A stretch of DNA of 64,000 nt from assembly GCA_963794025.1 (NCBI GenBank), contig CAWCCK010000018.1:2706-66705 (forward strand), written 5' to 3'. Made by a program: the position numbers and the translations under genes. Source of the stretch: Ignavibacteriota bacterium. Lineage in GTDB: Bacteria; Bacteroidota; Ignavibacteria; Palsa-1295. Position 1 is the stretch's first letter; every line of letters begins with the position of its first letter. Positions 1,683 to 47,555 of the stretch are shown in pieces. Below the pieces are notes generated by a model, which worked only from the letters and a program-made list of their open reading frames with translations, had not been told where the DNA came from and made no database searches.

Positions 1683-1997
1683 ATGGCACGAACACCTATT
1701 AAAAAACGCCTGAAACGCATCGTGCGCTCGCCGCGCTTGCTGCTCATCACGGGAATCTTAGCGGTTCTCACGTTCAGCTTGCTCTTTGCGAACAAGGGCT
1801 TGTGGCGCCATCTCGAAATTCGCCATGAGATCACACAGCGCCGCGCGGAACTTGCAAAACTTCAGGCGGATGAGGCGAGCGTATCCCGTGCCGTATCACT
1901 GCTTCAACTCGGAGACGCCTCGACCATCGAACGCATTGCACGGGAACGCTATGGGATGAAACGACCGGGTGAAACGATCTACACAATTATGAATTGA
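1683..1997 (+). CDS. ftsB: Septum formation initiator family protein (FtsB/DivIC-like)
   Basis: 104 aa with a single N-terminal TM helix, a coiled-coil stretch (ELAKLQADEAS) and a C-terminal RIARERYGMKRPGE motif typical of FtsB/DivIC. Confidence 0.6.
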   Translation: MARTPIKKRLKRIVRSPRLLLITGILAVLTFSLLFANKGLWRHLEIRHEITQRRAELAKLQADEASVSRAVSLLQLGDASTIERIARERYGMKRPGETIYTIMN

Positions 1998-2074
1998 GAA
2001 TTAATAATTAAGCATCTGGGTATTATTGTGCGTTCCTAATTATTAACTCTTAATTCTTACTTATTAATTGAGCT
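1997..2074. repeat. Intergenic hairpin built of AATTAA/AATTAT-type short units (gaattaataattaag ... ctaattattaactcttaattc)
   Basis: Inverted arms visible in the sequence. It belongs to the AATTAnGAA-type hairpin family seen throughout the window. Confidence 0.5.
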
Positions 2075-3061
2075 TTGCTCTTAGGCGTTGATATTGGCGG
2101 CACAACGGTCAAGCTTGGCGTCATCGATGCCGCGAGTGGAAGCATTATTGCCGAGTCTGCTTTTCCCACGCCACAAACAGGTTCACGCAATGTGGCAAAA
2201 GCGATCGCTGAACGGGTATATGAAAAGCGATCGGCATATCCAGAGATCGCGCGAATGGGTGTTGGGGTTCCGGGTGCTATGAATCGGGATCGTTCCCTCG
2301 TCCGCTACCCTCCAAATCTTTTGGGATGGAAAGAAGAGCCGCTCCAAACATATCTCAAGGAATTTTTGCCGGATTTTGAACGCATTGAAGTAGATAACGA
2401 TGCCAACGTAGCCGCATTAGCGGAAGCGCATCATGGCGCGGGTCGCGGACTTTCGCATTTTCTTCTCATCACGCTCGGAACCGGAATCGGCGGCGCAATT
2501 TACGCAACAGAACCACCCCCCGCATCGTCGGCGATGCGCCCTCGCCTTGAAAAGTCGGGGGGATTATTGTATCGCGGCGCATCCGGCGGCGCTGGTGAAT
2601 TTGGGCACATCTCTATCGATCTCAATGGCCCGGTATGCAATTGCGGTTCCCATGGGTGTATCGAAGCATATCTCGGTCAGCACTATCTTTCGGAACGAAC
2701 TCGAAAAAAATTGATGGAAAATCCATCCATTCAATCAGTTCTACGGATGGAAGTGGATGAGCTTACCCCGAAAATCATAGCCGACGCTATGAATGACGGC
2801 GATGCGTTTGCGCGAAGTGTGTTTGAGGAAGCCGGAATGCTGCTTGGCGTTGCGCTGGCGAATGTGGCGAATTTACTTGACATGCACGTATTTATTCTCG
2901 GCGGCGGCGTGGCGGAAGCTGGGGAAGTTTTGTTCGATGCCGCGCTTGCTTCGCTTCGTTCGCGGGCGCTGGCAAATTTGCGTCCCGTTGTGGAAATTCG
3001 CAAAGCGCATCTCGGCAATCGGGCGGGAATGATTGGCGCAGCGATGCTCGTGGCAGAATAG
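2075..3061 (+). CDS. ROK family sugar kinase (glucokinase). Carries an in-frame ~18-aa insertion from a GC-rich palindromic element.
   Basis: LGVDIGGT N-terminal ATP motif, the CNCGSHGCIEAY zinc motif and GAGEFGHI. The insertion ATEPPPASSAMRPRLEKSGG splits the conserved LGTGIGG...LYRGASGGAGE block. Confidence 0.8.
   Translation: MLLGVDIGGTTVKLGVIDAASGSIIAESAFPTPQTGSRNVAKAIAERVYEKRSAYPEIARMGVGVPGAMNRDRSLVRYPPNLLGWKEEPLQTYLKEFLPDFERIEVDNDANVAALAEAHHGAGRGLSHFLLITLGTGIGGAIYATEPPPASSAMRPRLEKSGGLLYRGASGGAGEFGHISIDLNGPVCNCGSHGCIEAYLGQHYLSERTRKKLMENPSIQSVLRMEVDELTPKIIADAMNDGDAFARSVFEEAGMLLGVALANVANLLDMHVFILGGGVAEAGEVLFDAALASLRSRALANLRPVVEIRKAHLGNRAGMIGAAMLVAE
2511..2565 (+). mobile_element. In-frame GC-rich palindromic element, a degenerate copy inside the ROK kinase gene
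   Basis: gAACCACCCCCCgcatcgtcggcgatgcgCCCTCGCCTTgaaaagTCGGGGGGatt shares the AACCACCCCCC head, CGCCTT..GGGGG hairpin core and GGGGG tail with the copies at 14152, 28270 and 28689. Confidence 0.5.
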
Positions 3062-3072
3062 GTCACAAATTA

Positions 3073-4491
3073 ATGCCTACGGAACTTCCCATTTGCATTT
3101 CCGTCAATGGTTCATACATTTATTACATGAGGATTCTCTCGTCAATGCTCTTGTTCGTACTTGCGCGGGGAACTGTCCTCGCGCAAGAGGTGCAAGTTCC
3201 GTTCGACTCGTCAGGAACGATTCAAGTGATCAATCAGGATTTCGAAAAAAAATTAGATCTGTTTCCGGCGCATCCTCATTTTCTTGAAGCTCGTCTGTTT
3301 CGGGAACCGGATAGTGGGTATGTACTCGAAGTTACGTCGTTTGAGAACAGCCAGCTTGTAAAAGACCGACTTCCGATCAATGCGAGCACGCTGAAATTGC
3401 TGCGAGAGAAAGTCGATGCGCTGCTCGGCTCGCAAACGGCAGTTGTGACACCGTATCAAAGTTCCAGATCAAAATTTGTTCTTGGCGAGACGCTTCTATC
3501 GACCTTTCTATATGGGCCGGCGATCATCACTGCGATCAATTCGGAGAATGTCGGATTGGATCTCGGCCTCGAATTGATCATCGGTGGCTCGGGGTATTTT
3601 CTTTCTTCTGCACTGACCCGAAATGGGTCGATGACGGACGCTGAAGGTTCCCTTTCACTTGGAGGAGCATTTTTAGGAGCCGTGCATGGTGGATTAATTG
3701 ACGTGCTGTTTGCAAAGGGGGGTAATCCCGGCCTTGCGATCGGGCCTATAATAGCCGCCGCCAGCCTTGCCGAAACAGGAATAGGTTATGCGATCGCATC
3801 GCACGATACGATGACCCAGGGAACTGCCGATATGATCCGTTATGGTGGCTTGTTTGGAATGGTGGATGGCTTTGGAATGGCGTTCGCGGTAAATAATCAT
3901 GCTCCGCATGAACTGTGGTCTGGACTGAGTTTAGCAGGATCGGCTGTTGGCTTCGCTGCCGGGGCTATGATGGCAAACAGCCAATTCTACAACCGGGGTA
4001 GTGGGTTGGTTGTTGCAACCATCGGAACGTATAGCGCTTACATTCCAGCCATTATTTATGCTTCTATGATCGATTATAATTTCGCGCATTCGCCGCCCTC
4101 CGGCCTCCCGCTCGTTGGAATTGCCGGCAATATCGGAGGTGTATTGCTCGCTAATTCTTTCGTGCAAAAGCGGGATTTCTCGACTTCGGATGGAACCACC
4201 GTTATTCTCGGTACAACGGCAGGATGTCTTATCGGAAGCGGCTTGGGAGCTATCTTGATTTCGCAAAAAGCACTGAGCAATTCGCTATGGGCATTTTCGA
4301 TTCCCTCCATTGTTGGCACCGTTGCGGGCTTTGGTATAAGCCTTGCAAGCCTCGGCAATGGCACTGACAAAACATCTACCGGTTGGAAATTCGATGCCAA
4401 TCCCGCCGCGCTTATGGGCGCATTGATGCCGAAGCATGAGAATAACGCGCCGGTTTCTGTGCCCATTTTTTCAGCAAGCTGCAAGTTCTAA
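3073..4491 (+). CDS. Hypothetical glycine-rich integral membrane protein (signal peptide and multiple G/A-rich helices)
   Basis: 472-aa ORF with N-terminal hydrophobic signal and repeated GxxxG-rich hydrophobic segments. No recognisable catalytic motif. Confidence 0.4.
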   Translation: MPTELPICISVNGSYIYYMRILSSMLLFVLARGTVLAQEVQVPFDSSGTIQVINQDFEKKLDLFPAHPHFLEARLFREPDSGYVLEVTSFENSQLVKDRLPINASTLKLLREKVDALLGSQTAVVTPYQSSRSKFVLGETLLSTFLYGPAIITAINSENVGLDLGLELIIGGSGYFLSSALTRNGSMTDAEGSLSLGGAFLGAVHGGLIDVLFAKGGNPGLAIGPIIAAASLAETGIGYAIASHDTMTQGTADMIRYGGLFGMVDGFGMAFAVNNHAPHELWSGLSLAGSAVGFAAGAMMANSQFYNRGSGLVVATIGTYSAYIPAIIYASMIDYNFAHSPPSGLPLVGIAGNIGGVLLANSFVQKRDFSTSDGTTVILGTTAGCLIGSGLGAILISQKALSNSLWAFSIPSIVGTVAGFGISLASLGNGTDKTSTGWKFDANPAALMGALMPKHENNAPVSVPIFSASCKF

Positions 4492-4515
4492 CGCTCATGT
4501 GTCGTATCTTTGTAG
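4480..4515 (+). promoter_or_regulatory. Bacteroidetes-type -7 element (TATCTTTG) 15 nt upstream of the pyrF start
   Basis: gtcgTATCTTTGtagaaaattaattctATG. Confidence 0.3.
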
Positions 4516-4527
4516 AAAATTAATTCT

Positions 4528-5310
4528 ATGACCTTCCTCGAAAAAATAAAAGCGGCTCAGACAAAAAGCCATTCCATGCTGTGCGTCGGATTAGATACCG
4601 ACTGGAAAACCATTCCCGAAATTCTGAAGAACGAGCCGAATCCTGTGGCAGCGTTCAATCGCGCTATCATCGACGCAACGAGCGATCTCGCGTGTTGCTA
4701 TAAATTGCAGATGGCCTATTATGAAGCGTACGGAACGAAAGGTATCGAAGCAGTGGAGCAAACGCTCGCGCATATTCCGGCGCACATTCTCACCATTGGT
4801 GATGTAAAGCGCGGTGACATCGGCGCGACAAGCGAGAAATACGCTTACACCTATCAGGAATTGTTCCCATTCGATGCGATCACCATTAACCCGCTGATGG
4901 GATTCGATGGCATCGAACCATTCATGCGACGTGAGGATAGAGGCGTGTTCTTTCTCGGATTAACCTCGAATCCCGGCGCGCGCGATTTCGAATATCTCGA
5001 ACTCACGAATGGGAAAAAGCTGTATGAAGAAATTACGGATAAAGTCCGCGAATGGAACGCTCCGAAAAAGAATGCAGGACTCGTCGTTGGCGCAACAAAG
5101 CCAACGGAACTTAAAGCACTCCGCCAGCGCGCTCCGGAACTTCCGTTTCTCATTCCCGGCGTAGGCACGCAGGGCGGAACAATGGAAGAAGTACTCGAAG
5201 CGAATGGCGATGGTCTCGCGCTTATCAATGTAAGCCGTGGCATTGCCGGAGCATCGAAAGGATCGGACTTTGCAGAAGCGGCTCGAAAAGCAGCCCAGCA
5301 GTATCTCTAA
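4528..5310 (+). CDS. pyrF: Orotidine 5'-phosphate decarboxylase
   Basis: 260 aa with N-terminal CVGLDTD and a lysine-containing GDVKRGDIG motif and C-terminal IPGVGTQGG. These are the OMP decarboxylase signature blocks. Confidence 0.8.
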   Translation: MTFLEKIKAAQTKSHSMLCVGLDTDWKTIPEILKNEPNPVAAFNRAIIDATSDLACCYKLQMAYYEAYGTKGIEAVEQTLAHIPAHILTIGDVKRGDIGATSEKYAYTYQELFPFDAITINPLMGFDGIEPFMRREDRGVFFLGLTSNPGARDFEYLELTNGKKLYEEITDKVREWNAPKKNAGLVVGATKPTELKALRQRAPELPFLIPGVGTQGGTMEEVLEANGDGLALINVSRGIAGASKGSDFAEAARKAAQQYL

Positions 5311-5315
5311 TTCTG

Positions 5316-5408
5316 GATTCCCGCTTTCGCGGGAATGACATAAAATGATCTTAGTGCGCGAAGCGCCACGATAAAAACGTACTTGTCATTCCCGCGAAAG
5401 CGGGAATC
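5316..5408. mobile_element. REP/MITE-like palindromic element with ~25-nt inverted termini (gattcccgctttcgcgggaatgaca ... tgtcattcccgcgaaagcgggaatc)
   Basis: Perfect terminal inverted repeat read directly. A second copy with the same termini and the same gcgcgaagcgc core lies at 49240-49324. Confidence 0.65.
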
Positions 5409-5457
5409 TATTCCCCAAATCCTGCACAATCCGCTAAAAATCCCATAAATCAGAGTC

Positions 5458-6825
5458 ATGATTTCCGAATCCTTCCTGCGCGAAATATGGAAAGCTCACG
5501 CAAGCTTTCTCGTTTCTCCGATCTTACTTTCGGATGGTTCGCCCGTTGATATTATTGATTGTGGCACAGATAACACCCATCGTGGAGGCCCGGATTTTCT
5601 CAGCGCACGCATTGTAATGGATGGCGTTCAAATTAGTGGCGATGTTGAACTACATATCACGCCCGAAGGCTGGCACGTACATGAGCACGATGGCGATGCA
5701 CGTTATTCGAATGTCATACTTCACGTTGTGCTCGAAGATTCGGACGAGAAAGTTGGTCCGCCGGTACCGCAAGTGGTGCTGCGTGATAATCTTGCCTTTG
5801 GCCGAAGCGATTTGTGGGAACAGTTATTCCGCAAAATGTACGACCGTTCTCCGGAACTTCCATGCTTTCCGCAGAATATCCTTGTTCCCATGCGCTTCAA
5901 GCGTAAAGTGCTCGATCAATTCGGGCATGCTCGTCTTGAAGAATTAATTGATCGCGTTACCATTTCCGAGCGCGAAATTCCATCGGAATCAGACATGCTT
6001 GAGCGAGTCTATCAGCTTACGATGGATGCGTTAGGCTATTCGCAAAATCGGGTTCCATTCCGAGAACTTTCTGCGCTCTTGCCCCTATCGCGTCTGCGAT
6101 TTGCGCGTGAAGCTTTTAGTGAGAACAGGAGTATCTCATTGGAAGCCGTCTTTTTCGGCGTCGCCGGACTTTTGCCGAAACCATCCCTCGAATTCGACAA
6201 CGAGACGAACGAATATCTCCTCGAACTGAACGCGCGATGGAATGCCATTCAGCAATCCCTCCGATTTCCGGAAGTGCTTGCCGAGCACGATTGGGCGTTC
6301 TTTCGGATTCGTCCGGCGAATAGTCCGCACCGGCGCATTGCGCTTGCGGCTGTATTGGCGGAGAAGTATTTCAGTCGGTCAGAATGGGATTTTCGGCACA
6401 ATTTCTTCGATAAAGGCCCAATCGTAAATTTAGGCGATAGCCCTTATTGGGAAACGCACACCTCATTTGCGTCGAAATTACCCGCTCCACAATCGCTTTT
6501 GGGCGAGGAGCGTGGTTCGGCAATATGGCTGAATGTCGTTATTCCTGCACGAATAGCAAGGCTGCGAACAGAGCCGGAAAATCCTTCACTACGGCGGAGC
6601 GAGCGCGAATTGATCGAAGAATGGGGAAGCGCGCGGACACAATCGAGCGCAAAATACCTTTCTGTGATCGAACAGGAACTTCTGGAAGGCGAAAACGTTA
6701 AATCCGTCCGCTCCGAACAGGGTGCGCTTTTACTTCAGAGAAACTTCTGTCAGAAGCTACGCTGTTCTGAGTGTCCCATCGGTCATCGCCTGATAGAAAA
6801 GGGATGGCGGGTGGGGAAAGTATGA
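5458..6825 (+). CDS. DUF2851 family protein
   Basis: 455 aa. The N-terminal FL..W....F........G..V.I...G..N...GPDF..A.I...G....G.VE.H...S.W..H.H..D..Y.NVILHVV pattern matches the DUF2851 family common in Bacteroidota. Confidence 0.5.
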   Translation: MISESFLREIWKAHASFLVSPILLSDGSPVDIIDCGTDNTHRGGPDFLSARIVMDGVQISGDVELHITPEGWHVHEHDGDARYSNVILHVVLEDSDEKVGPPVPQVVLRDNLAFGRSDLWEQLFRKMYDRSPELPCFPQNILVPMRFKRKVLDQFGHARLEELIDRVTISEREIPSESDMLERVYQLTMDALGYSQNRVPFRELSALLPLSRLRFAREAFSENRSISLEAVFFGVAGLLPKPSLEFDNETNEYLLELNARWNAIQQSLRFPEVLAEHDWAFFRIRPANSPHRRIALAAVLAEKYFSRSEWDFRHNFFDKGPIVNLGDSPYWETHTSFASKLPAPQSLLGEERGSAIWLNVVIPARIARLRTEPENPSLRRSERELIEEWGSARTQSSAKYLSVIEQELLEGENVKSVRSEQGALLLQRNFCQKLRCSECPIGHRLIEKGWRVGKV

Positions 6826-6866
6826 AGTATGAAATGGGAAAACGAGCCTATTTCATACTTCATACT
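6819..6866. repeat. Hairpin (agtatgaagtatgaaat ... atttcatacttcatact) overlapping the DUF2851 stop codon; possible terminator
   Basis: 17-nt inverted arms with tandem (g)tatgaa units. Followed by the tRNA-Gly gene. Confidence 0.5.
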
Positions 6867-6874
6867 TGGCAAAT

Positions 6875-6948
6875 GCGGGAGTAACTCAGTTGGTAGAGTG
6901 CGACCTTGCCAAGGTCGATGTCGCGGGTTCAAGTCCCGTCTCCCGCTC
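6875..6948 (+). tRNA. tRNA-Gly (anticodon GCC)
   Basis: 74-nt cloverleaf: acceptor gcgggag/ctcccgc, anticodon stem cgacc/ggtcg with loop ttGCCaa, T-loop ttcaagt. No encoded CCA. Confidence 0.85.
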
Positions 6949-6954
6949 TACGGG

Positions 6955-6990
6955 GAAATTATGAATGATGAATTATGAATGATGAGTTGA
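6955..6990 (+). repeat. Single-arm copy of the AATTATGAATGATGA tandem unit (x2), identical to the hairpin arms at 8833 and 8905. It supplies the start codons of the following ORF.
   Basis: ggaaattatgaatgatgaattatgaatgatgag. Confidence 0.5.
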
Positions 6991-7157
6991 AATTTAAGTA
7001 TAGCAGCGATATTGATGCACTTTGGATAGACATTCAAGAGGGCATAGTCAATGACACGATCGAAATCGCGCAAGATTTATTCGTCGATTTTGATGAGAAT
7101 AGGAATATTTTAGCGATTGAAATGCTGGATGCTTCAAGAATTGTAAATGATGTTTGA
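6975..7157 (+). CDS. DUF2283 domain protein (small protein usually partnered with a DUF4258 toxin); orphan copy
   Basis: 60 aa: KYSSDIDALWIDI..G.......I..D..VDFDENRNILAIEMLDAS matches the DUF2283 pattern (Y..e.DalYI.l........e.....i.D.d..g.ivGIEildAs). Confidence 0.6.
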   Translation: MNDELKFKYSSDIDALWIDIQEGIVNDTIEIAQDLFVDFDENRNILAIEMLDASRIVNDV

Positions 7158-7190
7158 CTATTAGAGGTCTTTTGCGGAAGCACATAAAGT

Positions 7191-8396
7191 AATGCCCACT
7201 CCTCAAGATTTAGCCGCCGAATTATCTCAAGAGCGATTTCGCACTGACATCGCTGCTTGAATTCGCGCGCACGCTTACGCCCGATCTTGGGCCGAGCGGG
7301 ATTATCCGCAGCGTGCTCCGGACGGTCATGGGCAAATCGCTTATCAAGGAAGCCATTGCGTATCTCGGCACCGTGGATGGCGAGCGATATGAATTAGTTG
7401 CTCGCGCCGGATTTGACCATCTCAAGCTTTCGGAATCGGTCGATCGCAGAAAACCTTGACGAACTAATCGCAAAAATATCGGAGCCATTTACCGCCGTTC
7501 CGCTTATGACTGCCGATGGCACGGGCTATCTCGGATTGCTCGCGCTTGGCCCATCCATCAACCCGAAATTAAGCGGCGATTCCGAAGCAACGTATCTCGC
7601 ATCGCTTGCTGCGCTTACATCCATTGCACTGACGAATGCGTGGTTATTTGAGCGAGAAAAAGAACGAGAGCGATTAGAATCCGAATTACGACTTGCGAGA
7701 GATATTCAAGAATCACTGCTTCCGCAACAGTTGCCGAAGATTGCCGGAGTCGAGTTCGCTGCGATGTCGCGGCCTTCCGAATGGGTCGGCGGCGATTATT
7801 ACGATGTTATTCAATTAGATGAAAATCGCGTGCTTCTTGCTATTGCCGATGTTGTTGGCAAGGGCGTAACGGCTGCGCTTACGATGTCCAATTTGCAGGC
7901 TGCGCTCCGTGCATTAGTAACCATGCTTCGGGCGGGACATTTAACACTGCTCGATGTCGTAAAAGAATTGAACCGCCTGATGTGCGAAAGCACCGCACCG
8001 GAGCGATTCATTACCGCCGCGTTCGTTGTGCTCGATATTCATCGCCATACGATGGAAACGGTTGTTTGCGGCCATCCAAATCCGATCATAATATCACCCG
8101 AACGCCAACCCGTTATTGCAGAAAGCACCGGCATCCCGCTTGGGATCATCCCAACATTTCCGTATGAATCTCGAAATTACCATTTATCGCGAGGCACCCT
8201 GATCGTACTTTACACCGATGGCTTATCCGAAGCATTCTACGGAGATGCTCTTCTTGGAGAACATGGCACGATTCAACTGGCATTAAAAGCGTTGCAACAG
8301 CAAGGGAGCCTTCAGCAGATATTAGAAGAAATGGGGCGTTCCGAGCAAATATCCATCGAAGATGATATCACGGTCTTAGCGGTTCGCATGAAGTGA
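7191..8396 (+). pseudogene. GAF-PP2C (SpoIIE/RsbU-type) serine phosphatase with two frameshifts in the N-terminal GAF region
   Basis: Frame 0 (7191-7259) encodes MPTPQDLAAELSQERFRTDIAA and then hits a stop. Frame +1 (7258-7460) continues with EFARTLTPDLGPSGIIRSVLRTVMGKSLIKEAIAYLGTVDGERYELVARAGFDHLKLSES. The third frame (ORF 7398-8396) carries the rest of the GAF domain and a complete PP2C domain (GGDYYDV...DVVGKG...LYTDGL). Joining the frames reads naturally (..TDIAA-LEFARTL..). Confidence 0.5.
7398..8396 (+). CDS. PP2C-family serine phosphatase domain (longest intact ORF of the disrupted gene above)
   Basis: SpoIIE/PP2C motifs: GGDYYD, ADVVGKG, YTDGLSEA. Confidence 0.7.
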   Translation: MLAPDLTISSFRNRSIAENLDELIAKISEPFTAVPLMTADGTGYLGLLALGPSINPKLSGDSEATYLASLAALTSIALTNAWLFEREKERERLESELRLARDIQESLLPQQLPKIAGVEFAAMSRPSEWVGGDYYDVIQLDENRVLLAIADVVGKGVTAALTMSNLQAALRALVTMLRAGHLTLLDVVKELNRLMCESTAPERFITAAFVVLDIHRHTMETVVCGHPNPIIISPERQPVIAESTGIPLGIIPTFPYESRNYHLSRGTLIVLYTDGLSEAFYGDALLGEHGTIQLALKALQQQGSLQQILEEMGRSEQISIEDDITVLAVRMK

Positions 8397-8544
8397 TAGA
8401 ATTGAAGCATTACCAAATTCATTGAAAGCGAACTTGTAACGGAAGCCGCCTGTTACCTCGCTCCGCGTCAGGCAGAACCACGATTACACGGATTGGATGG
8501 ATTTTCTGGATTATGCAATAATCCTTAAAATTCTCAAAGTCAAT

Positions 8545-8578
8545 AGCGTAATCAGCTCAGATCAGCGTAATCCAGGTT
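8545..8578 (+). repeat. GCGTAATCCAGGT box, copy 1 (agcgtaatcagctcagatcagcgtaatccaggtt), abutting the 5' end of tRNA-Arg
   Basis: Tandem half-site plus full 13-mer. The same composite recurs at 10393, 37408 and 44436, all on the + strand. Confidence 0.6.
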
Positions 8579-8652
8579 GCGCCCGTAGCTCAGGTGGATA
8601 GAGCAACAGCCTTCTAAGCTGTGGGTCGCTGGTTCGAGTCCAGCCGGGCGCA
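8579..8652 (+). tRNA. tRNA-Arg (anticodon TCT)
   Basis: Acceptor gcgcccg/cgggcgc, D-arm gctcaggtggatagagc, anticodon stem acagc/gctgt with loop ctTCTaa, T-loop ttcgagt. Confidence 0.85.
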
Positions 8653-8654
8653 CG

Positions 8655-8745
8655 ATTTTTGCAATTATGAATTATGAATTATGAATTATGAAAGGGGAAT
8701 AGCGTCCTTTTTCATAATTCATAATTCATAATTCATAATTGCCCA
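8655..8745. repeat. Hairpin whose arms are tandem AATTATG heptamers (x3 / x4) around a 25-nt loop, between tRNA-Arg and tRNA-His
   Basis: gcaattatgaattatgaattatgaaagg ... cctttttcataattcataattcataattcataattgc. Confidence 0.65.
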
Positions 8746-8749
8746 TCAT

Positions 8750-8824
8750 GGTGGGCGTAGCTCAGTTGGTTAGAGCGCCAGGTTGTGGCCCTGGAGGTCG
8801 TGGGTTCGAAGCCCATCGCTCACC
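8750..8824 (+). tRNA. tRNA-His (anticodon GTG) with encoded G-1
   Basis: G(-1) then acceptor gtgggcg/cgctcac with discriminator C. Anticodon stem ccagg/cctgg with loop ttGTGgc, T-loop ttcgaag. Followed by CCA. Confidence 0.8.
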
Positions 8825-8825
8825 C

Positions 8826-8935
8826 CATTTTTGGACAATTATGAATGATGAATTATGAATGATGAAGGTTGTTCGCCACTTTCTCATTGCCTGTTTTCTT
8901 AATTCATAATTCATCATTCATAATTTCATCCCATG
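8826..8935. repeat. Hairpin with AATTATGAATGATGAATTATGAATGATGA arms (inverted) between tRNA-His and gltX
   Basis: Left arm caattatgaatgatgaattatgaatgatgaagg. Right arm cttaattcataattcatcattcataatttcatcc. Confidence 0.6.
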
Positions 8936-10372
8936 GTTCGCGTAAGATTCGCTCCTTCTCCTACCGGTTTCGTACACGTCGGCTCGCTGAGAGGGGCGTT
9001 GTACTGCTATCTCTTTGCCCGGCATCACGGTGGGGTTAACATTCTTCGCATCGAAGATACCGACCGCACCCGATACGTCGAAGGGTCGGTTGAAAATCTG
9101 TTTTCCACGATGGCGTGGGCCGGTATCACATTCGATGAAGGCCCAATGGAAGGTGGAGCGTTCGGCCCGTATGTTCAATCCGAGCGGAAAGAACTTTATT
9201 CGAAGTATGCTGCTGAATTAGTTACCGGCGGTCATGCGTATCCATGCTTTTGTTCTGCGGAACGATTAGATATGGTTCGTAAAGCCCAACAAGCCGCTGG
9301 AATTCCACCGATGTACGACCGGCACTGCCGCAATCTTACAAAAGAGGAAACGGATGCTCGCATTGCTGCCGGTGAGCCGCATGTCATTCGGTTGCGGGTT
9401 CCCATTGGCGAGACAGTTCGATTCCACGATCTGATTCGCGGTGATATTGCGTTCGAAAGCGGTACCATTGACGATCAAGTGCTGATCAAGTCCGATGGTT
9501 TTCCACTCTATCATCTTGCGAACGTTGTGGACGATCATCTGATGCAGATCACGCACGTTATTCGTGGCGAGGAATGGTTATCGTCAACGCCAAAACATGT
9601 TTTGCTCTATGCAGCGTTCGGATGGGAACCACCGAAATTCGCGCATCTTCCATTATTACTGAATGCCGACCGCTCGAAGCTCTCGAAGCGTCAGGGCGAT
9701 GTGGCTGTAGAAGATTATCGCGATAAAGGTTACTTGCCGGATGCGCTCATCAATTTCGTTGCCCTGCTTGGATGGAACCCGAGCGCAACAGAAGAGATAT
9801 TTTCGATGGACGAGCTGATTCGTGGATTCGATCTGGAGCGCGTCAATAAAGGCGGCGCGGTCTTTGGTCGTGAAAAGCTCGATTGGATGAACTCGGAATA
9901 TATTCGAAAGAAATCTCCGGAGGAATTGCTTTCGCTCGTTCGCCCGCTTGCGGAGAATAGAAAATATGTGGTGAGCGATGAATATCTGCTTTTTGTCATT
10001 CGCGTAATGCAGGAGCGCGTCCGCACACTGCCGGATTTTGTCGATTTCGCAAGCTACTTTTTCGTTCCTCCCGATTTTAAGGACATCGACGAGAAATACA
10101 AACAGAAACACTGGAACCCGGAAGCGAAAGCGCGACTCACTGAAATCCTTCCACGTTTCGAAGCGGCGGAAAAATGGGATCACGATACGCTCGAAGCCAT
10201 CGTCCGCACGTTTGCGGAAGAGCAAAGCATCAGCGCAGGCAAGCTGATCCATCCCATTCGCCTTGCGGTAACAGGCCGAGGCAACGGGCCGGGGTTGTTT
10301 GAATTGCTCGCTGTAATAGGCAAGCCAGAATCGCTTAGGCGAATTCGAACTGCTTTGAATTTGCTTGATTGA
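8933..10372 (+). CDS. gltX: Glutamate--tRNA ligase
   Basis: 479 aa with the class I HIGH-region signature RFAPSPTGFVHVGSLRGAL, a KLSKR-type KMSKS motif (KLSKRQGD) and the GluRS-specific tRNA-binding C-terminus. Confidence 0.85.
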   Translation: MVRVRFAPSPTGFVHVGSLRGALYCYLFARHHGGVNILRIEDTDRTRYVEGSVENLFSTMAWAGITFDEGPMEGGAFGPYVQSERKELYSKYAAELVTGGHAYPCFCSAERLDMVRKAQQAAGIPPMYDRHCRNLTKEETDARIAAGEPHVIRLRVPIGETVRFHDLIRGDIAFESGTIDDQVLIKSDGFPLYHLANVVDDHLMQITHVIRGEEWLSSTPKHVLLYAAFGWEPPKFAHLPLLLNADRSKLSKRQGDVAVEDYRDKGYLPDALINFVALLGWNPSATEEIFSMDELIRGFDLERVNKGGAVFGREKLDWMNSEYIRKKSPEELLSLVRPLAENRKYVVSDEYLLFVIRVMQERVRTLPDFVDFASYFFVPPDFKDIDEKYKQKHWNPEAKARLTEILPRFEAAEKWDHDTLEAIVRTFAEEQSISAGKLIHPIRLAVTGRGNGPGLFELLAVIGKPESLRRIRTALNLLD

Positions 10373-10392
10373 ACGCGATCCTAAAAATCAAT

Positions 10393-10427
10393 CCTCGTAA
10401 TCCATCCAAATCCGCGTAATCCAGGTC
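10393..10427 (+). repeat. GCGTAATCCAGGT box, copy 2 (cctcgtaatccatccaaatccgcgtaatccaggtc), between convergent gltX and the OmpA-like gene
   Basis: Read directly. It ends at the stop codon of the minus-strand gene. Confidence 0.6.
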
Positions 10428-12378
10428 ACTTCTTATCTTCCGCATTCTCGATAATAATAAATTCGATACGGCGGTTGGTCTCGCGGCCCTCATCGGTCGA
10501 GTTCGTTGTGATCGGGCGCGTCTGGCCATAACCGCGCGTTTCGAGGCGAGTGGAACTAATCGTGTGCTGCGTAAGCCAATCTCGAACAGCATTTGCGCGA
10601 TTGATCGAAAGCTTCTCATTCGCAGTCGAATCACCCTGGTTATCCGTATGACCCTGAACCGAGATTTTAATTCCCGGATATTTCTGCATCAATCCCAGTA
10701 ACTGATTAAGCGGCGCAAACGAGACCGGCAAAATATCCCACTTGCCTGTTTCGAATTCAATGCGCGGCAGATCGATACGCTGCCCGACTTGATAGGGAAC
10801 TTCTGGGCAGCCGTGATTCGATTTCGGCCCCGGTTCCAGCGGACACGCGTCCTCGCCATCGGGAACTCCATCGCCATCCGTATCGGGGTTGAGCGGGTTC
10901 GTATGATATTTAAATATTTCATCGTAATCCGAAAGCCCATCACCATCGGTATCTTTCAGAAGCGGATTTGTATGATAGACAAAGATCTCATCGTAATCCG
11001 AAATGCCATCGCCATCGGTATCTTTTTTCAGCGGATCGGTGTGGTATTTAAAGATCTCATCATAATCGGAAATGCCATCGCCGTCGGTATCGCGCGAAAG
11101 CGGATCGGTGTGATATTTCAGCACTTCATCGCCATCCGTAAGACCATCGCCATCGGTATCGGCAAGCCGAGGATTCGTATGATATTTATGGACTTCATCG
11201 CCGTCCGATAGCCCATCGCCATCCGTATCAGGGTTGAGCGGATCGGTGCCATAAATGCGCACCTCATCGCCATCAGAAAGCCCATCACCATCCGTATCCG
11301 GATTGTTCGGATCGGTGTGATAGATCATGATCTCTTCGATGTCCGTCAGCCCGTCGCCATCGGAATCGGCAAGTTGATCGAGCACAGCGTCGCCATATTC
11401 GTAAAACCCATCCGTCTTGCCAAACCCCAGCGCATACCGCATCGAAAGATACGCCTCCGGCCTGTGCGGCCCGCGTGAGGAACGTGGGAACGCATGTTCC
11501 AGCCGGAGCAGACCCGTCTCAATATCCAGGTGCTTCAAATTTCTGAGAACTATTCCAAAGTTCACATCGTCGCCGGCGACATCGAGCTGCGCGATCAGAT
11601 TGCGAACCCGGTACCGAACGAGCGCCAGTGGATTAAATCCCGGAATACCCTTATCGGTATAGACATTATACGTGTTAAAAAAATTGAGATAGCGAGAAAT
11701 AGGTCCCGAACCGGAATATTTTCCGTTCCCAAATCCGGCTCCGATGCTCACGCCATTGCGCGTCGAGTAACGCACTTCGCCGCCGGAACCCGGAAGCTCC
11801 GGCCCCATGATCACATCTTCCGCCATATCCTCAGCCGATGCTTCCCGAAGCAGCTTGCCATAATCGCTCGAATCCGGTGGATGACCAAGCCAGTACGTCA
11901 CCAAGAACGAGAGCGAATTCCGATCTGGGTAAATACTTTTATCGCTTTGACCATCGCCCAGATATTCGTTCGCATCTTTCTTTGCAAAAAGATTCTCACC
12001 GCGAATGCTGAGTCCTATCTTCGACGAATCCCCACCAATGACAAACCGGTCGATCTGGAACTGTGGGTTCCAATCGATGAACGGAAGCATATCCGATGGG
12101 AACACATACGAGATCAGCCCAAAGCGGAACTGCCCGTACTCCATCGAAACATACTGATTGAAATTGATCTGCTTATCGGTGACGCCACCTGTCGAGTGCG
12201 TAAAATCATCCCATTGCGAATTCGGCGGCGTCGAAGCACCCCATCCGATGATGACTCGAAAATCGCTGAAGCGCTCGAACGGCGAACGAAGATCCTCAAA
12301 TTGCGCGTGTGCAGAAGCACCGACGCTCAGAACGGCGGCGGTAATAGCAAATCTGGCAAAAATCAGTTTTACGCGCAC
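10426..12378 (-). CDS. OmpA-family outer membrane protein with thrombospondin type-3 (DTDGDGxxDxDE) repeats and a C-terminal OmpA/MotB peptidoglycan-binding domain
   Basis: N-terminal signal peptide, ~9 TSP3 calcium-binding repeats ([12 protein letters not shown]...) and a C-terminal OmpA-like block ([23 protein letters not shown]). Confidence 0.75.
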
Positions 12379-12511
12379 TACGATGAAAACAATGGCACCG
12401 GCACACGTCCGGCAAACTATGGGGGCGTATCCGTAAGAACTTTTCTGCCAAAAAAGTTTCGCTGTATCACGGGAAGCGAGATTCGCCTCAAACCGTTATT
12501 CTTTCAGACAA

Positions 12512-14638: not shown

Positions 14639-14707
14639 GCTACAAAAATACGACGGAAGTTATGATCGATCGCAGTTATTGAAAACAACAGATATGCCAA
14701 AAAGAAT

Positions 14708-16333: not shown

Positions 16334-16405
16334 GAGGACGGTCGCTCGCGAAAGTGTGAGAATTATCGGGAACGAGTAGCATCAAAAGATAATTCATTTA
16401 CAATC

Positions 16406-18184: not shown

Positions 18185-18193
18185 CGCAGGTTC

Positions 18194-19450: not shown

Positions 19451-19463
19451 AGAAAGTTACAGC

Positions 19464-24293: not shown

Positions 24294-24302
24294 CAGTTAG
24301 CT

Positions 24303-24388: not shown

Positions 24389-24390
24389 GG

Positions 24391-37449: not shown

Positions 37450-38607
37450 ATGAATTTCCAATACACCGAAGACCACATCGCCATTCGCGACGCCGCGCGA
37501 GAGTTTGCTGAGAATGAAATCGCGCCTTCCGCCGTCGAGCGCGATAAAACGGGCGAGTTCCCAACGGAGATCGTCCAAAAATTGGGCGAGCTTGGGTTCT
37601 TAGGAATGATGGTCGCGCCGGAATGGGGCGGCGCAGGACTCGACACCGTCAGCTACGTGCTTGCCATCGAAGAAATCGCGAAAGTCGATGCGAGCGTGGC
37701 TGTCATCATGTCGGTGAATAATTCCCTTGTCTGCTGGGTGATCCAAACCTTCGGCACGGATGAACAAAAGGAACGGTTCCTGCACCCGCTTGCAACCGGC
37801 CAAAAGCTCGGCGCGTATTGCCTCAGCGAACCCGGCGTTGGCTCCGATGCTACGAAGCAAGCCACGACGGCCACGCTGCAAACCGATGGAAGCTACCTCA
37901 TCAACGGCGCGAAAAATTGGATCACCAATGGCACGACGGCAGATCACTATGTCATTTTCGCGCAGACCGACGCTACAAAAGGACATCGCGGCATCACCTG
38001 TTTCGTGATCGATAAAGGAATGCCCGGTTTCGAAACGGGACTGAAAGAAGATAAGCTCGGCATTCGGTCGAGCGATACATGTTCGCTCGGTTTTACGGAG
38101 CTAAAAGTTACGACCGATCGGATTATCGGCGATGTCGGGCAGGGATTTAAGATCGCAATGGAGACGCTGAATGGCGGTCGCATCGGGATTGCTGCACAGG
38201 CGCTCGGCATAGCGAGCGGCGCAATGGATAAAGCCATTCGTTATTCGTTCGAACGCCATGCGTTCGGCAAGCCGATCAATCAATTACAAGCAATTCAATT
38301 CAAGCTGGCCGATATGCAGGTGAAGGTCGAGGCTGCGCGAATGCTCATTCTTCGTGCTGCCCGAAAAAAAGATGTAGGAGAAAGTTTTATCAAAGAAGCT
38401 GCGATGGCGAAGCTCTATGCCTCCACGATCGCGAACGAAGTAGCGACGCAAGCCATTCAGGTGCATGGCGGCTACGGTTATGTGCGCGAGTATTTAGTCG
38501 AGCGCAGTTTGCGCGACGCGAAGATCACCGAGATCTACGAAGGCACGAGCGAAATTCAGCATATTGTGATCGCCAGGCAGCTTTTGAAAGAATACCAAAA
38601 TAATTAA
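37450..38607 (+). CDS. Acyl-CoA dehydrogenase (short/medium-chain type)
   Basis: ACAD N-terminal, middle and C-terminal domains. The catalytic Glu lies in the YEGTSEIQ motif. Confidence 0.8.
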
Positions 38608-38700
38608 GAATTAGAAATTAAGAATTAAGAATGAAGGGAGCAACGAAAAAAGCTGTCACGCTATCTTTATTCTTCATTCTTAATTCTTCCTTCTTAACTA
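38598..38700. repeat. AATTAAGAA-type tandem-unit inverted repeat overlapping the 5' end of the next ORF
   Basis: aattaagaattagaaattaagaattaagaatgaagg ... ctttattcttcattcttaattcttccttcttaac. Confidence 0.55.
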
Positions 38701-39185
38701 ATAAATGTGAAGCGCAGACCGGAGGGAAATACGATTTCTACCGATACCTTCAGCAATACGCTGTCGAGATCGATCCGATTGGAGATATTCTTGGCCGGGT
38801 GAGCGGGCAATTCGAAGAACGGCTCGATCCCAATTTCTCTCGGGTGTATGACATTGTTTATCAACGAGCGGTAGAGGATAAACACACGACCGGTTGGTAT
38901 CCGGAATCAGCGATCACCGTTGGCGCGATGGAACGCATTTTTCTTACCGATAATGCAGCGATTCTCGGTCAATATATTGGCATCGGAGTGGGGGCTGGTG
39001 TCATTCACAAGTCCATTGCCGTGCGCGTGACTGCTGAGATCGGATATAAGATCGCGTTCGGCGGAGGAACCGGGCATTTCTTCATCGAACCGAAAATTCT
39101 TATGGATTCCTACATCATCACAAACGCGGTCGGACAGCGTATTTTACCCTACGTTGCACTGCCGTTTGGGTACTCCTGGTGGTAG
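38631..39185 (+). CDS. Small outer-membrane beta-barrel protein (C-terminal ..FGYSWW)
   Basis: Signal peptide, alternating amphipathic strands and an aromatic C-terminus typical of OMP barrels. Confidence 0.45.
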   Translation: MKGATKKAVTLSLFFILNSSFLTNKCEAQTGGKYDFYRYLQQYAVEIDPIGDILGRVSGQFEERLDPNFSRVYDIVYQRAVEDKHTTGWYPESAITVGAMERIFLTDNAAILGQYIGIGVGAGVIHKSIAVRVTAEIGYKIAFGGGTGHFFIEPKILMDSYIITNAVGQRILPYVALPFGYSWW

Positions 39186-41331: not shown

Positions 41332-41353
41332 AAAAGCCAAATTCAACGAAAAA

Positions 41354-41414
41354 TGTAGCGCAAACTTTAGTTTGCGATTCTGGGATGGGGTCGCAAACTA
41401 AAGTTTGCGCTACA
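41354..41414. repeat. Two inverted copies of TGTAGCGCAAACTTTAGTTTGCGA forming a 24-bp-arm hairpin between lemA and the TPM gene
   Basis: tgtagcgcaaactttagtttgcga-ttctgggatggggt-cgcaaactaaagtttgcgctaca. The same 24-mer occurs at 110-133. Confidence 0.65.
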
Positions 41415-42252
41415 TTTTGCAATACATTTATTGCGCTCTTGATTTTCTTGAGTGCGAGCATTTCCTTCGCTCAATCCTCCGGTTCCCCCGCAATCCCCAT
41501 GCTCCATGCCGGGTACGTGCTCGATGAAACGAACACGCTGAACCCCAACGAGCTTTCCGCGCTCGATGCAAAACTTCGGCATTACGAAGATTCCACTTCG
41601 ACGCAAATTTGCATTGTGCTGATTCCAACGCTGAACGGCAATCCGGTGGAGGATTTCGCTGTCACCGTGCTTGATAGCAATCATATTGGGCAAAAAAACA
41701 AGAATAATGGTGCGCTTATTTTGCTTGCGCTCACGGATCATCAGGGATGGATCTCCACCGGCTATGGACTCGAACCCACGCTCACCGATGCTGCATCGAG
41801 CATGATCTATCAGCAAATCTTAGTTCCCGCACTGCGCAAAGGCGATGTCTATGGCGGACTCGATCAGGCAACGACGGCGATGTTCCAGGTCATCGGCGGG
41901 GAATTTAAGAACGAGAACCCGCAAAGCCCCATTCGCGGCAGGCGCGGCGCGCCATCGCCGGCGGGTGCGCTTCCTTATCGTATTAGGATTTTTCATTTTT
42001 CTCTTTATCATGCGTGCGTTGGCGGGGACGGGTTCCCGGCGCACGGTTGTCGGCGCGGGCGGAGCAGGTTCCGGATGCATGGGAGGGATCTTGCAGGGAT
42101 TGTTCTGGTCCTCGATCTTTAACTCCGGCCGTGGCGGATGGGGTGGTGGTTTCGGCAGCGGCGGAGGATTTGGCGGAGGCGGCTTCGGCGGCGGTGGTTT
42201 CTCCGGCGGCGGCGGCATGGGCGGCGGAGGTGGTGCGGGCGGTGGGTGGTGA
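41385..42252 (+). pseudogene. TPM-domain protein (YgcG-like; LemA partner) with a frameshift between the TPM domain and the C-terminal TM/glycine-rich tail
   Basis: Frame 1 (to 42122) holds the signal peptide and TPM domain (ICIVLIPTLNG...ALILLALTDHQGWISTGYGLE). Frame 2 (41845-42252) holds the TM FLIVLGFFIFLFIM and the GGGFGGGG tail. The junction is near 41940-41980. Confidence 0.55.
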
Positions 42253-44427: not shown

Positions 44428-44435
44428 CTTCAAAT

Positions 44436-45832: not shown

Positions 45833-45893
45833 GGTGGTGTGGCACATGCTTTAGCTTGCGTCAGGTGACACAAGCTAAAGCATGTGCCACACC
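45833..45893 (-). terminator. Long hairpin terminator immediately after the GNAT gene
   Basis: ggtggtgtggcacatgctttagcttg-cgtcaggtgaca-caagctaaagcatgtgccacaccac. On the minus transcript it is followed by ccggauuuuuaag. Confidence 0.65.
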
Positions 45894-45895
45894 AC

Positions 45896-46363
45896 TTACA
45901 CTCTTTTGCCGAAAATGACGAGGTCGTCGCCCGGCTTGTAATAATCTTTGATCTGTGCAAGCACTTCGTAGTGCTGCTTGATGTAGAACGCTCGCGTGCG
46001 TTCGTAACTTAGCTGGCTGCTGGTTTCGGCGATGAGGAGATAGCCGTGGCGCTCGCTTACAAAGCGAACGGCGTATGCGTCTAACTCCTGCGCGATGCCG
46101 TGCCCCTGATATTCCGGATCGACAGCGATCCAATACATATCATAAGTTCCAATGGTTGCTGGCGTTGGGCCGAGCAGTAGAAAGCCTGCTACGTTATTCG
46201 ATACTTCGGCGATGTAAGCAAAATAATCTTTTTGCTCTGGTTGTCCCGTACAAATGTCAATGAGCTCTTCGGCGATCGTCACTTCCGCTTCGGAAAAATT
46301 CTTCGTCGCGCGGATGAGTCGGAGAATGTGATCGCGGTCTTCTTTTTTTATTTCACGTATCAT
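45896..46363 (-). CDS. GNAT family N-acetyltransferase
   Basis: 155 aa with an acetyl-CoA binding motif (Q.HGIAQEL). Confidence 0.7.
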   Translation of the reverse strand: MIREIKKEDRDHILRLIRATKNFSEAEVTIAEELIDICTGQPEQKDYFAYIAEVSNNVAGFLLLGPTPATIGTYDMYWIAVDPEYQGHGIAQELDAYAVRFVSERHGYLLIAETSSQLSYERTRAFYIKQHYEVLAQIKDYYKPGDDLVIFGKRV

Positions 46364-46464
46364 GCAAAAAAATGTTCCGCATGGTGTGTTTAACGACGTG
46401 TTCGTTTCGATGGTTCAATTTTCAACGCTTCATTCAAAATTATTAATGCAAGCTCTCACGAATT

Positions 46465-47520
46465 TTATTGTGAGCGTTCTGCTGCGCGATTGAGAATTTC
46501 GTTGATCGTCGCAGCATACGTTCTTCCGCTCGTTCGGGCGGCGCGCATGAAGCCGGCGTCTTCGCTAATATCCGGATTCGGATTTGCTTCGAGCACGAAA
46601 AGGTTACCATTCGCATCCAGCCGCATATCCACGCGCCCGTAATCACGCAAGCCTATGGCGTTAGCGGCTCGAAGTGCGATGGATCGCGCTTCAATCGCAA
46701 TGTGCTCCGGTAACTTTGCCGGACATTCCGGCATCGTTGTCTGATAGATCGGCGATTCTTCCACCCACTTCGCTTCATAGCTCACGATGTGTGGCATTCC
46801 CTCCGGCATTTTGTCGAAGGTGATCTCCGAGATCGGAAGCGTGATGAACGTACTATCAGACGCCGCTAAGACGGCAACGTTTAATTCTCTGCCATCGATA
46901 AATTCTTCCGCAAGCGCGGGTTGCTCGAATTCTTTCTGAATAAATTTTACTCGTTTTGCGAGGGACGTTGCATCTTGCACGATGGCATTGGAATCTATTC
47001 CAATACTTGCATCTTCATGCACAGGTTTTACGATGAGCGGAAAGCGTAGATGAGGATCGAGCGATTCCATTTTCTCGTGCTCGAAAAGTTGATGTCTCGG
47101 CGTAGGAATGCCGTTGGCGAGAAAGACAGCTTTTGCCAGCGCCTTTTCGAGCGCAAGCCCCAGTGCAAGCGGCGGTGAGCCGGTATAAGGAATGCGAAAT
47201 AACTCATAGAGCGCAGCTACGTTCATCTCAAGCTTCGATTGACCGAGAATAGCTTCGCAGCAATTAAAAATTACTTCAGGGCGCTCGGTCGATAGAAAGG
47301 AGCACAACCTCTGGGTATCGTCATCGGCGCTAAAGATAGTTACCTGATGTCCGTGCTCTTTCAGCGCGCTTGCGATGGAGCGCATTTGTTCGAGCACGCC
47401 AAATTCGGACGCGTCGATAAATTCGCTGGAAGGCGGATGGTAATTTGGATCCGACCGGCGCAGCCAGTGATCCTCGGAAGCCGTGTTGCGCGGCTCGTTA
47501 TAAATAACAGAGACTTTCAA
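46465..47520 (-). CDS. D-alanine--D-alanine ligase-family ATP-grasp enzyme (paralogue 2)
   Basis: Ddl-like blocks: IPYTGS, FPLIVKP, EEFIDGRE, EANPNPD. Confidence 0.65.
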   Translation of the reverse strand: MKVSVIYNEPRNTASEDHWLRRSDPNYHPPSSEFIDASEFGVLEQMRSIASALKEHGHQVTIFSADDDTQRLCSFLSTERPEVIFNCCEAILGQSKLEMNVAALYELFRIPYTGSPPLALGLALEKALAKAVFLANGIPTPRHQLFEHEKMESLDPHLRFPLIVKPVHEDASIGIDSNAIVQDATSLAKRVKFIQKEFEQPALAEEFIDGRELNVAVLAASDSTFITLPISEITFDKMPEGMPHIVSYEAKWVEESPIYQTTMPECPAKLPEHIAIEARSIALRAANAIGLRDYGRVDMRLDANGNLFVLEANPNPDISEDAGFMRAARTSGRTYAATINEILNRAAERSQ

Positions 47521-47555
47521 GTCAATTACGAATTACGAATTTCAAATTACGAATT
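47521..47555. repeat. AATTACGAA-type tandem-unit repeat between the ATP-grasp gene and the four-helix-bundle gene
   Basis: caattacgaattacgaatttcaaattacgaattggg. Confidence 0.5.

Follow-up and report, generated by a model that had tools for sequence, protein, structure and literature searches.

The 64,000-nt stretch analysed here (contig CAWCCK010000018.1 of assembly GCA_963794025.1, hereafter the window) comes from a Kapaibacterium of the Chlorobi/Ignavibacteria group, and its intergenic regions carry a family of hairpins whose arms are tandem units of about 7 nt. Arms of this kind flank genes of the PF05635/TIGR02436 family (IVP genes, from the family name 23S_rRNA_IVP), and one and the same orthologous spacer can be empty, hold a bare hairpin or hold two arms around such a gene. 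With moderate confidence, we regard the hairpins as the stems, lacking an open reading frame (ORF), of a family of selfish cassettes resembling intervening sequences and residing in transcribed spacers, whose duplexes are probably RNase III substrates, which evolve by slippage and conversion and which are not canonical terminators. The window contains one full-length, partly decayed cassette (47524-47968), six ORF-less hairpins and one solo arm. An earlier note made from the letters of this DNA had described the hairpins; the link with the PF05635 gene at 47547-47921 was absent from it.

Hairpins and one cassette in the window

The sites were defined by reading the sequence in combination with Tandem Repeats Finder and an inverted-repeat scan (Table 1). 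Six of the eight inverted-repeat sites listed in the earlier note are strong tandem-heptamer hairpins, whereas 6957-6985 and 47524-47555 turned out to be single arms with no partner nearby. Folded as RNA, the six hairpins reach free energies of -18 to -51.1 kcal/mol, with z-scores of -2.7 to -12.9 relative to dinucleotide shuffles, and the duplex stems measure 21-38 bp. The degenerate pattern GAANNANGAANNANGAA occurs 12 times for 0.09 expected, and this excess, the enrichment in period 7 and the folding z-scores altogether rule out chance or low complexity as the origin of the hairpins. With head-to-tail 7-nt units at eight intergenic sites in 64 kb, the arrays qualify as heptanucleotide long simple-sequence repeats (SSRs). 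On inspection, two weak period-7 stretches (61135-61155 and 49084-49138) proved not to be hairpins. A CRISPR array, made of direct repeats of 23-50 nt and unique spacers, is ruled out, and the earlier note was right to speak of a hairpin repeat family: the units are 7 nt long and contiguous, and they form inverted arrays free of spacers. Rfam models searched against the window returned only three tRNAs and Acido-Lenti-1, with no match to any hairpin and no rRNA.

Table 1. Tandem-heptamer hairpins, single arms and cassette gene of the window. Free energies (dG) are in kcal/mol.
Position	Strand	Feature	Arms	dG; z	Setting
1984-2070		Degenerate hairpin, AATTATG/AATTGAG/AATTAAT units	1984-2011, 2043-2070	-18; -2.7	Gap between DivIC (1683-1997) and ROK kinase (2075-3061); DivIC TGA (1995-1997) inside 5' arm
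6818-6867		Hairpin, AAGTATG x2.3 arms	6818-6838, 6847-6867	-30; -9.5	DUF2851 gene on one side, tRNA-Gly on the other; DUF2851 stop (6823-6825) inside arm
6957-6985	+	Solo 5'-type arm, AATTATGAATGATG x2			Begins 8 nt past tRNA-Gly
8661-8742		Near-perfect 38-bp hairpin, AATTATG x4.3 on both arms	95% complementary	-51.1; -12.9	Between tRNA-Arg (8579-8653) and tRNA-His (8751-8827)
8837-8925		Hairpin, AATTATGAATGATG x2 arms	8837-8866, 8896-8925	-32.9; -6.1	tRNA-His upstream, gltX start (8933) downstream
24911-25024		Hairpin, AATTACG-type arms	24911-24947, 24988-25024	-49.1; -7.6	Between nuoA and nuoB, both minus strand; nuoA frame crosses one arm
38599-38704		Imperfect hairpin, AATTAAG-type arms		-28.7; -5.4	Acyl-CoA dehydrogenase stop (38605-38607) in arm; then ORF 38631-39185, first codons in arm and loop
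47524-47555	-	Single arm, 3' arm of the IVP cassette, minus-strand reading AATTCGTAATTTGAAATTCGTAATTCGTAATT			Holds the IVP stop TAA in its first unit; ends 4 nt ahead of the start of a ddl-like gene (46465-47520)
47547-47921	-	PF05635 gene, 124-aa four-helix-bundle protein of the 23S_rRNA_IVP family (S23p, Avd-like)			Cassette cargo
47957-47968	-	Decayed 5' arm, minus-strand AATTACGAATTT			Directly after the upstream gene's stop TAG (47969-47971)

The protein encoded at 47547-47921 matches PF05635 (E 2.1e-27) and TIGR02436 (E 1.5e-30), its closest solved structure being PDB 2RLD (E 2.7e-28). An S23p/PF05635 ORF of this kind is found in the 47524-47968 cassette and in the cassettes of relatives described below; the six hairpins have none. 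Sequence is shared between sites, since the 25-mer AATTACGAATTTCAAATTACGAATT is common to an arm of the 24911-25024 hairpin and to 47524-47555. Moreover, as the earlier note had seen, an identical 29-mer, AATTATGAATGATGAATTATGAATGATGA, stands near tRNA-Gly and tRNA-His: it reads the same at 6957-6985 and 8837-8865, and the ATG of a DUF2283 ORF (6975-7157; Pfam E 1.6e-11) is part of the former copy.

The solo arm at 6957-6985 has no local partner within 2.5 kb other than the 3' arms 8711-8740 and 8896-8925, and its best complement is 8902-8925. In the relative L003 (loci numbered L001, L002 and so on are those of relatives, or of records bearing homologues, that we compared with the window), a solo arm (8076-8104) also follows tRNA-Gly; its sequence recurs unchanged in the 5' arm of a hairpin some 1.7 kb further downstream, whose 3' arm (9779-9807) is complementary to the solo arm at 29 of 29 positions, the window counterpart being 6957-6985 with 8896-8925. 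As judged from the letters, an alternative long-range pairing would be allowed, enclosing DUF2283, the gene of a SpoIIE-type phosphatase and either both tRNAs or one of them (in L003, tRNA-Arg alone).

The hairpins span the intergenic gaps from upstream stop codon to downstream start codon, and the start codons of the ROK kinase, gltX, nuoB and the ddl-like gene lie 1-8 nt past an arm. The NuoA frame extends some 38 codons beyond its Pfam domain, through a hairpin arm and into the loop (24955-25071; tail ...IMKNYGFQIANYESAPNKIAADSP), and the insert between nuoA and nuoB seems to have displaced the original nuoA stop codon. As for ORF 38631-39185, it has no Pfam hit, starts in the 5' arm, and its N-terminus, encoded by loop and 3' arm, resembles a signal peptide (MKGATKKAVTLSLFFILNSSFL...).

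One spacer in three states, and arms that travel with a gene

Identity between the window GltX (8933-10372) and proteins of Kapaibacteria metagenome-assembled genomes does not exceed 85%. About 20 Kapaibacteria loci share the order tRNA-Arg, tRNA-His, gltX, and their spacers are found in three states: empty, occupied by a heptamer hairpin, or occupied by two heptamer arms around a PF05635/TIGR02436 gene. Between tRNA-Arg and tRNA-His, the spacer is empty (11-16 nt) in L006, L008, L014, L017 and L052; a heptamer hairpin fills it in the window and in L001-L003, L011 and L012, the units being AATTATG x4 (window and L001), AATGATG x3 (L002), AAAGATG type (L003) and others (L011, L012); and it consists of arms plus an IVP gene in L010, where the arms are AAGGATG, and in L009, where they are AAGTATG. 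The L009 gene (92-525) is split into two overlapping frames and looks like a frameshifted pseudogene, a possible intermediate from cassette to bare hairpin. A third cassette occupies the spacer between tRNA-His and gltX in L019 (TGGGGTA x7 versus ATACCCC x5). In these three relatives the arms lie 375-520 nt apart and the "loop" codes for a PF05635 protein. Throughout the Kapaibacteria set, four of four PF05635 genes are flanked by 7-mer arrays, and an Elusimicrobia IVP copy that also adjoins gltX (L070) has inverted 8-mers on its flanks.

The hairpins themselves turn over in the same loci. Those between tRNA-His and gltX use AATTAAG, TAAGTGC, GTAGTCA, TTAGGTG or GAGTAGC units depending on the relative, and more distant relatives have an ordinary G+C-rich terminator in this spacer. 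L013 combines the two: the loop of its TTAGGTG-type heptamer hairpin encloses a canonical terminator, G+C-rich and with a T-run (9889-10000). The orthologous hairpin before tRNA-Gly has AAGTATG x2.3 in the window and x4.3 in L003, which bears out the idea in the earlier note that replication slippage alters unit number; the example given there, arms of three versus four units at 8655-8745, was wrong, since the unit count is 4.3 on either arm (8663-8692 and 8711-8740) and the pairing is perfect. The same note had named conserved regulatory sites of constant copy number as what would speak against a repeat family; in the orthologous spacers, presence, unit sequence and copy number all vary. Since all three turn over, the conserved feature is the period of about 7 nt and the pairing of the arms, not a sequence. 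In this regard, 407 kb of Kapaibacteria sequence contained 44 arrays and 14 array-hairpins of period 7, the remaining periods between 4 and 14 gave no hairpins, and none of period 7 turned up in outgroup loci totalling 920 kb. Identical complex 29-mers recur at non-orthologous sites with different loops (L001 7291; L003 8076 and 9740; window 6957 and 8837).

A metagenome scan with the window IVP protein gave 80 loci at 56-85% identity, 78 of them with enough flanking sequence, and a stricter array detector was run on 71. Complementarity between the upstream and downstream flanks beat all 30 shuffles in 72 of the 78 loci, the best period being 7 in 74, and the arms are tandem AATTACG, AATTAGG, AATTAAG or AATTATG. 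Terminal inverted repeats of the sort that form the stem of an intervening sequence enclose the IVP gene in these 72 loci as well as in L009, L010 and L019. The stricter detector found arrays within 200 nt upstream in 52/71, downstream in 58/71 and on both sides in 49/71, over a background of 0.176 arrays per kb, or 0.04 per flank. The median distance from the end of the 5' array to the gene is 17.5 nt. The 3' array starts within the match, 3 nt (median) short of its end, and therefore usually contains the IVP stop codon. The G+C content of the host flanks ranges from 0.30 to 0.63 while the arms remain AATTNNG, and that of the IVP gene is lower than that of its flanks; arms that stay AATT-rich over such a range of hosts therefore travel with the gene. 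The two arms have their dominant unit in common in 29 of 62 cassettes (mean 13.2 and maximum 23 in 2000 shuffles), and IVPs that agree in their arm unit resemble each other slightly more, at 68.2% versus 66.0% identity, a difference reached in none of 2000 permutations. One related cassette has 18 units on one arm and 4 on the other, and the outer flanks of the metagenomic loci also hold ORF-less AATTNNG arrays and hairpins.

The family is thus not genome-specific, contrary to what the earlier note supposed: the same arms occur in relatives, in metagenomes whose hosts span 30-63% GC and in named records, where the IVP gene stands between hsdS and hsdM in Flectobacillus, between polyketide synthase (PKS) and non-ribosomal peptide synthetase (NRPS) genes in Caldithrix, and next to hicB in Marinimicrobia. 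The clustering around tRNA genes pointed out in the same note holds for the window, where five of the eight sites were counted within 6818-8925 (four by the coordinates of Table 1), and fails for the family at large, since a tRNA lies within 1.5 kb of only 1 of 60 related loci; tRNA-linked insertion was rejected as a general rule for this reason.

Homologues of the window IVP number at least 7946 at E <= 1e-10. Plasmids searched by tblastn for the L019 protein yielded 20 records, mostly from Nostoc, Calothrix and Anabaena, and 14 loci, nearly all cyanobacterial, were inspected. Inverted short-unit arrays flank the gene on both sides in 10 of them, the pairs including GGGTGTA/TACACCC, GGTGACA/TGTCACC, GTAGGGA/TCCCTAC, AGGGAAC/GTTCCCT and AAAAGGG/CCCTTTT; two have direct arrays (L165 from Gemmatirosa, and L173 from Pseudanabaena, with AAAAGCT x15 upstream and AAAAGCC x9 downstream), one is one-sided and one has none. 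Periods 6 and 8 also occur beside IVP homologues, and 7 is therefore the mode rather than the rule. The plasmid homologues lie within operons, such as those of cas6 and cas4, of cas10 and cmr3, or of ribonucleotide reductase subunits. Taking plasmid and named records together, L162, L166, L173, L175 and L177 have IVP genes within cas6/cas4, cas10/cmr3, hsdS/hsdM and PKS/NRPS pairs. These positions may explain why "23S rRNA IVP" is listed among CRISPR-associated families (PMC10910872).

Proposed cassette decay and its alternatives

In its full-length form, the proposed element would comprise an inverted array of units of about 7 nt, a PF05635/TIGR02436 gene and the complementary array, and it would occupy transcribed spacers, after tRNAs and between cistrons. 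In RNA, the arms would pair into a long A-U-rich duplex of 21-38 bp, which RNase III would probably cut if the S23p-bearing intervening sequences of 23S rRNA are a guide; we propose that such a cut separates the insert from the host RNAs and so makes it tolerated. Unit number would change by replication slippage, a process already put forward for the excess of heptamers in genomes (PMC4679880), copies within the same genome would exchange sequence by copying or conversion, and cassette interiors would be lost by deletion, leaving bare hairpins. That the hairpins derive from the cassettes, or at least belong with them, is suggested by the three-state site, the frameshifted gene of L009, the common arm families and the identical 29-mers at non-orthologous sites; 29-mers with unrelated loops are what would be expected of copies that underwent independent internal deletions. 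A unit length not divisible by three also puts any stop codon that it contains in all three frames within three units, and this may bear on why the unit is of about 7 nt.

Several observations weigh against this explanation. No transposase, target-site duplication or insertion mechanism was seen, and filled and empty spacers compared with each other show no clear duplication; any route of mobility is conjectural. ORF-less hairpins exceed gene-bearing cassettes by 14 to 4 in the 407 kb of Kapaibacteria sequence, and gene remnants could not be demonstrated in any hairpin loop. The canonical terminator in the L013 loop would not be predicted either, because in a typical cassette the stop codon overlaps the 3' arm. 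In addition, two homologues have direct arrays and one has no arrays, and of the diverse Kapaibacteria units (TAAGTGC, GTAGTCA, TTAGGTG, GAGTAGC) only some were found beside an IVP gene.

Part of this evidence would suit an origin within the host, in which heptanucleotide SSRs born by slippage, in the sense of the long-SSR idea of Mrazek, are kept as RNA structures for 3'-end stability, cistron separation or as processing marks, and IVP genes are secondary colonisers of the loops. The greater abundance of gene-less hairpins, the many unrelated units with the 7-nt period as their sole common trait, and the copy-number differences at orthologous sites would all follow, and two papers describe heptamers as the commonest class of long SSR in most genomes and explain them by slippage (PMC4679880; PMC4692102). 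Pre-existing arms, however, hardly explain why AATTNNG arms accompany window-type IVPs across several phyla and hosts of 30-63% GC, or why IVP subfamilies differ in their units (AAGGATG in L010, TGGGGTA in L019, an 8-mer in L070, G-rich in Nostocales), and identical complex 29-mers at non-orthologous sites argue for copying and not for independent slippage. On present evidence we consider host-made, later colonised hairpins less likely than cassettes, with perhaps one chance in a few of being the right explanation. A different function, compatible with cassettes, would be that a protein recognising 7-nt units, for instance the IVP as a pentamer or a single-strand binder of cold-shock type, binds the arrays and thereby regulates the translation or stability of adjacent genes. 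Arms that adjoin or overlap the start and stop codons of their neighbours and the weak co-variation of unit sequence with IVP lineage would fit such a role; moreover, a stoichiometry of one heptamer per protein is reported for CspB binding (PMC4679880), and heptamer repeats of Nostoc are reported to influence expression (bioRxiv 10.1101/2022.06.06.494920). We nevertheless find it unlikely, as the case is drawn from sequence, units differ inside one arm, and the best-conserved property is arm complementarity, which points to pairing rather than to a sequence-specific site.

The role proposed in the earlier note, that of intrinsic transcription terminators or insulators of this genome, has on its side the position of the hairpins directly past stop codons and tRNA 3' ends and the canonical terminators that occupy the tRNA-His/gltX spacer in more distant relatives. 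A terminator scan of window positions 1-20000, however, called no heptamer hairpin, the stems are A-U-rich and not G+C-rich, and no T-run follows the stem at any of the six hairpins. One hairpin lies inside an operon, between nuoA and nuoB, several others immediately precede the start of the next gene in same-strand pairs, and in L013 a canonical terminator is nested within a heptamer hairpin. The operon site and the want of a G+C-rich stem with T-run lead us to view the hairpins as structures of co-transcribed spacers and not as canonical terminators, so that we give the terminator role very little credence.

Returning to the cassettes, a wider and clearly more tentative proposal is that PF05635/TIGR02436 genes with their inverted arrays of about 7 nt form a very widespread, so far unrecognised class of mobile cassette, whose spread and decay would be the source of heptanucleotide hairpins, whether described as long SSRs or as short tandemly repeated repetitive (STRR) sequences, in Nostocales, Bacteroidota/Chlorobi-group phyla and possibly Xanthomonas. 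The Avd-like protein might then maintain or move the element, for instance by binding the excised RNA or the arrays.

Other repeats of the window and known elements of similar build

The genome is unusually rich in intergenic hairpin families. The two Acido-Lenti-1 matches in 61250-61455 (61255-61301, minus strand, 50.1 bits; 61404-61450, plus strand, 37.3 bits) stand 100 nt apart as the two arms of an inverted repeat of 53 nt, in a host outside the phyla named in the motif. A second dispersed palindrome family, GATTCCCGC...GCGGGAATGACA, is found at 5316-5408 and 49244-49325; the former has perfect 25-mer arms, each of them itself a small hairpin, and its related copy belongs to the 49054-49406 intergenic region. 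A palindrome at 24297-24394, its arms 47 nt long, immediately follows nuoB (minus strand) and includes an internal period-7 repeat, GCGAGGA x2.7; together with the 24911-25024 hairpin it means that two successive nuo intercistronic gaps carry long hairpins. Further long, near-perfect palindromes of unrelated sequence lie at 27450-27538, 28688-28769, 41339-41429, 45834-45895 and 62933-63010; that at 41339-41429 has TGTAGCGC in common with a 12-nt tandem repeat at 81-126. Within a long minus-strand ORF (10426-12378) there is also a tandem repeat of 69/138 nt (10868-11298; 5.4 and 3.1 copies, about 72% matches).

Of the known elements, the one whose architecture most resembles that of the cassettes is the S23p-bearing intervening sequence of 23S rRNA, described in Coxiella burnetii and Leptospira, where a small PF05635-family ORF likewise lies inside terminal inverted repeats forming a long stem (PMC4990558). 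That of Coxiella is a selfish element of 428 nt with an S23p ORF, a stem of 28 bp made by its terminal inverted repeats, a G+C content below that of the host and cleavage by RNase III in vitro (PMC4990558). The residence within a highly transcribed stable-RNA operon, the sporadic distribution, the low G+C content and the selfish character attributed to these sequences are further points of resemblance (PMC4990558). Unlike them, the elements described here sit in tRNA/mRNA spacers and between protein genes instead of a helix of 23S (or 16S) rRNA, their arms are tandem units of about 7 nt, most copies have no ORF, and excision by RNase III is a prediction for a duplex of known length and perfection. 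The cargo is also homologous to Avd of diversity-generating retroelements, with weak matches to bAvd (PF22296) and NF033474 far below cut-offs, yet no reverse transcriptase, template repeat or variable repeat lies nearby.

Tandem heptanucleotide repeats have been known in cyanobacteria since about 1990, and STRR consensus units are CCCCAGT and others. In the strict sense of the consensus units of heterocystous cyanobacteria, the window repeats are not STRR, their host being a Kapaibacterium and their units AATTNNG or AAnnATG. The STRR heptamers and the TAACTGA direct repeats of Beggiatoaceae, Cyanobacteria and Bacteroidetes resemble them as short intergenic tandem heptamers, often at start codons, whose patchy phylogenetic distribution suggests horizontal spread; unlike the present arms, those are mainly direct arrays, with one inverted set in a Beggiatoaceae genome, and no cargo gene was described (PMC4679880). 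The plasmid four-helix-bundle genes of Nostoc, Calothrix and Anabaena are here flanked by inverted heptamers. Rehm et al. (2015) studied heptanucleotide repeats of function unknown with units GGGAATC in Xanthomonas and GGGGAYT in Nostoc, and 70-75 sites per Xanthomonas genome are convergent heptamer pairs able to form stem-loops (PMC4692102). Those are also intergenic tandem 7-mers that keep their position and differ in length between related strains, whereas they are G-rich, were studied as G-quadruplexes, belong to other host phyla and were not linked to S23p or four-helix-bundle genes (PMC4692102).

Dispersed intergenic palindromes that far outnumber a gene-bearing form, present or absent at orthologous sites, also recall repetitive extragenic palindromes (REP/REPIN) and miniature inverted-repeat transposable elements (MITE). 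The arms described here are internally tandem-repetitive, and what they enclose is the gene of a four-helix-bundle protein for which no catalytic role is known. They start with AATT or AAGT and lack the GTAG/CGTC tag of REP sequences, and no REP-associated tyrosine transposase was noted, although no search aimed at one was made. The combination of inverted arms with a rarer gene-bearing form might fit a MITE, but filled spacers show no duplication relative to empty ones and the cargo is not a known transposase.

Heptamer repeats, including the convergent pairs of Xanthomonas (PMC4692102), and S23p intervening sequences are each known already. A literal text search for AATTACGAATTACG and five related strings found no paper, and none that joins heptamer repeats with S23p/four-helix-bundle genes was found in the part of the literature that we searched, so an earlier description is possible. 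Such arrays can mislead repeat and CRISPR finders and break assemblies. To our knowledge there is no accepted origin or function for the tandem heptanucleotide repeats of cyanobacteria, Xanthomonas and other bacteria, nor any known role for the S23p/four-helix-bundle family outside diversity-generating retroelements. A physical link between the two predicts RNase III cuts in the stems, binding of the protein to the arrays, arm units that diverge together with the gene, and hairpins that are decay products of cassettes; in that case, two old puzzles may have one answer.

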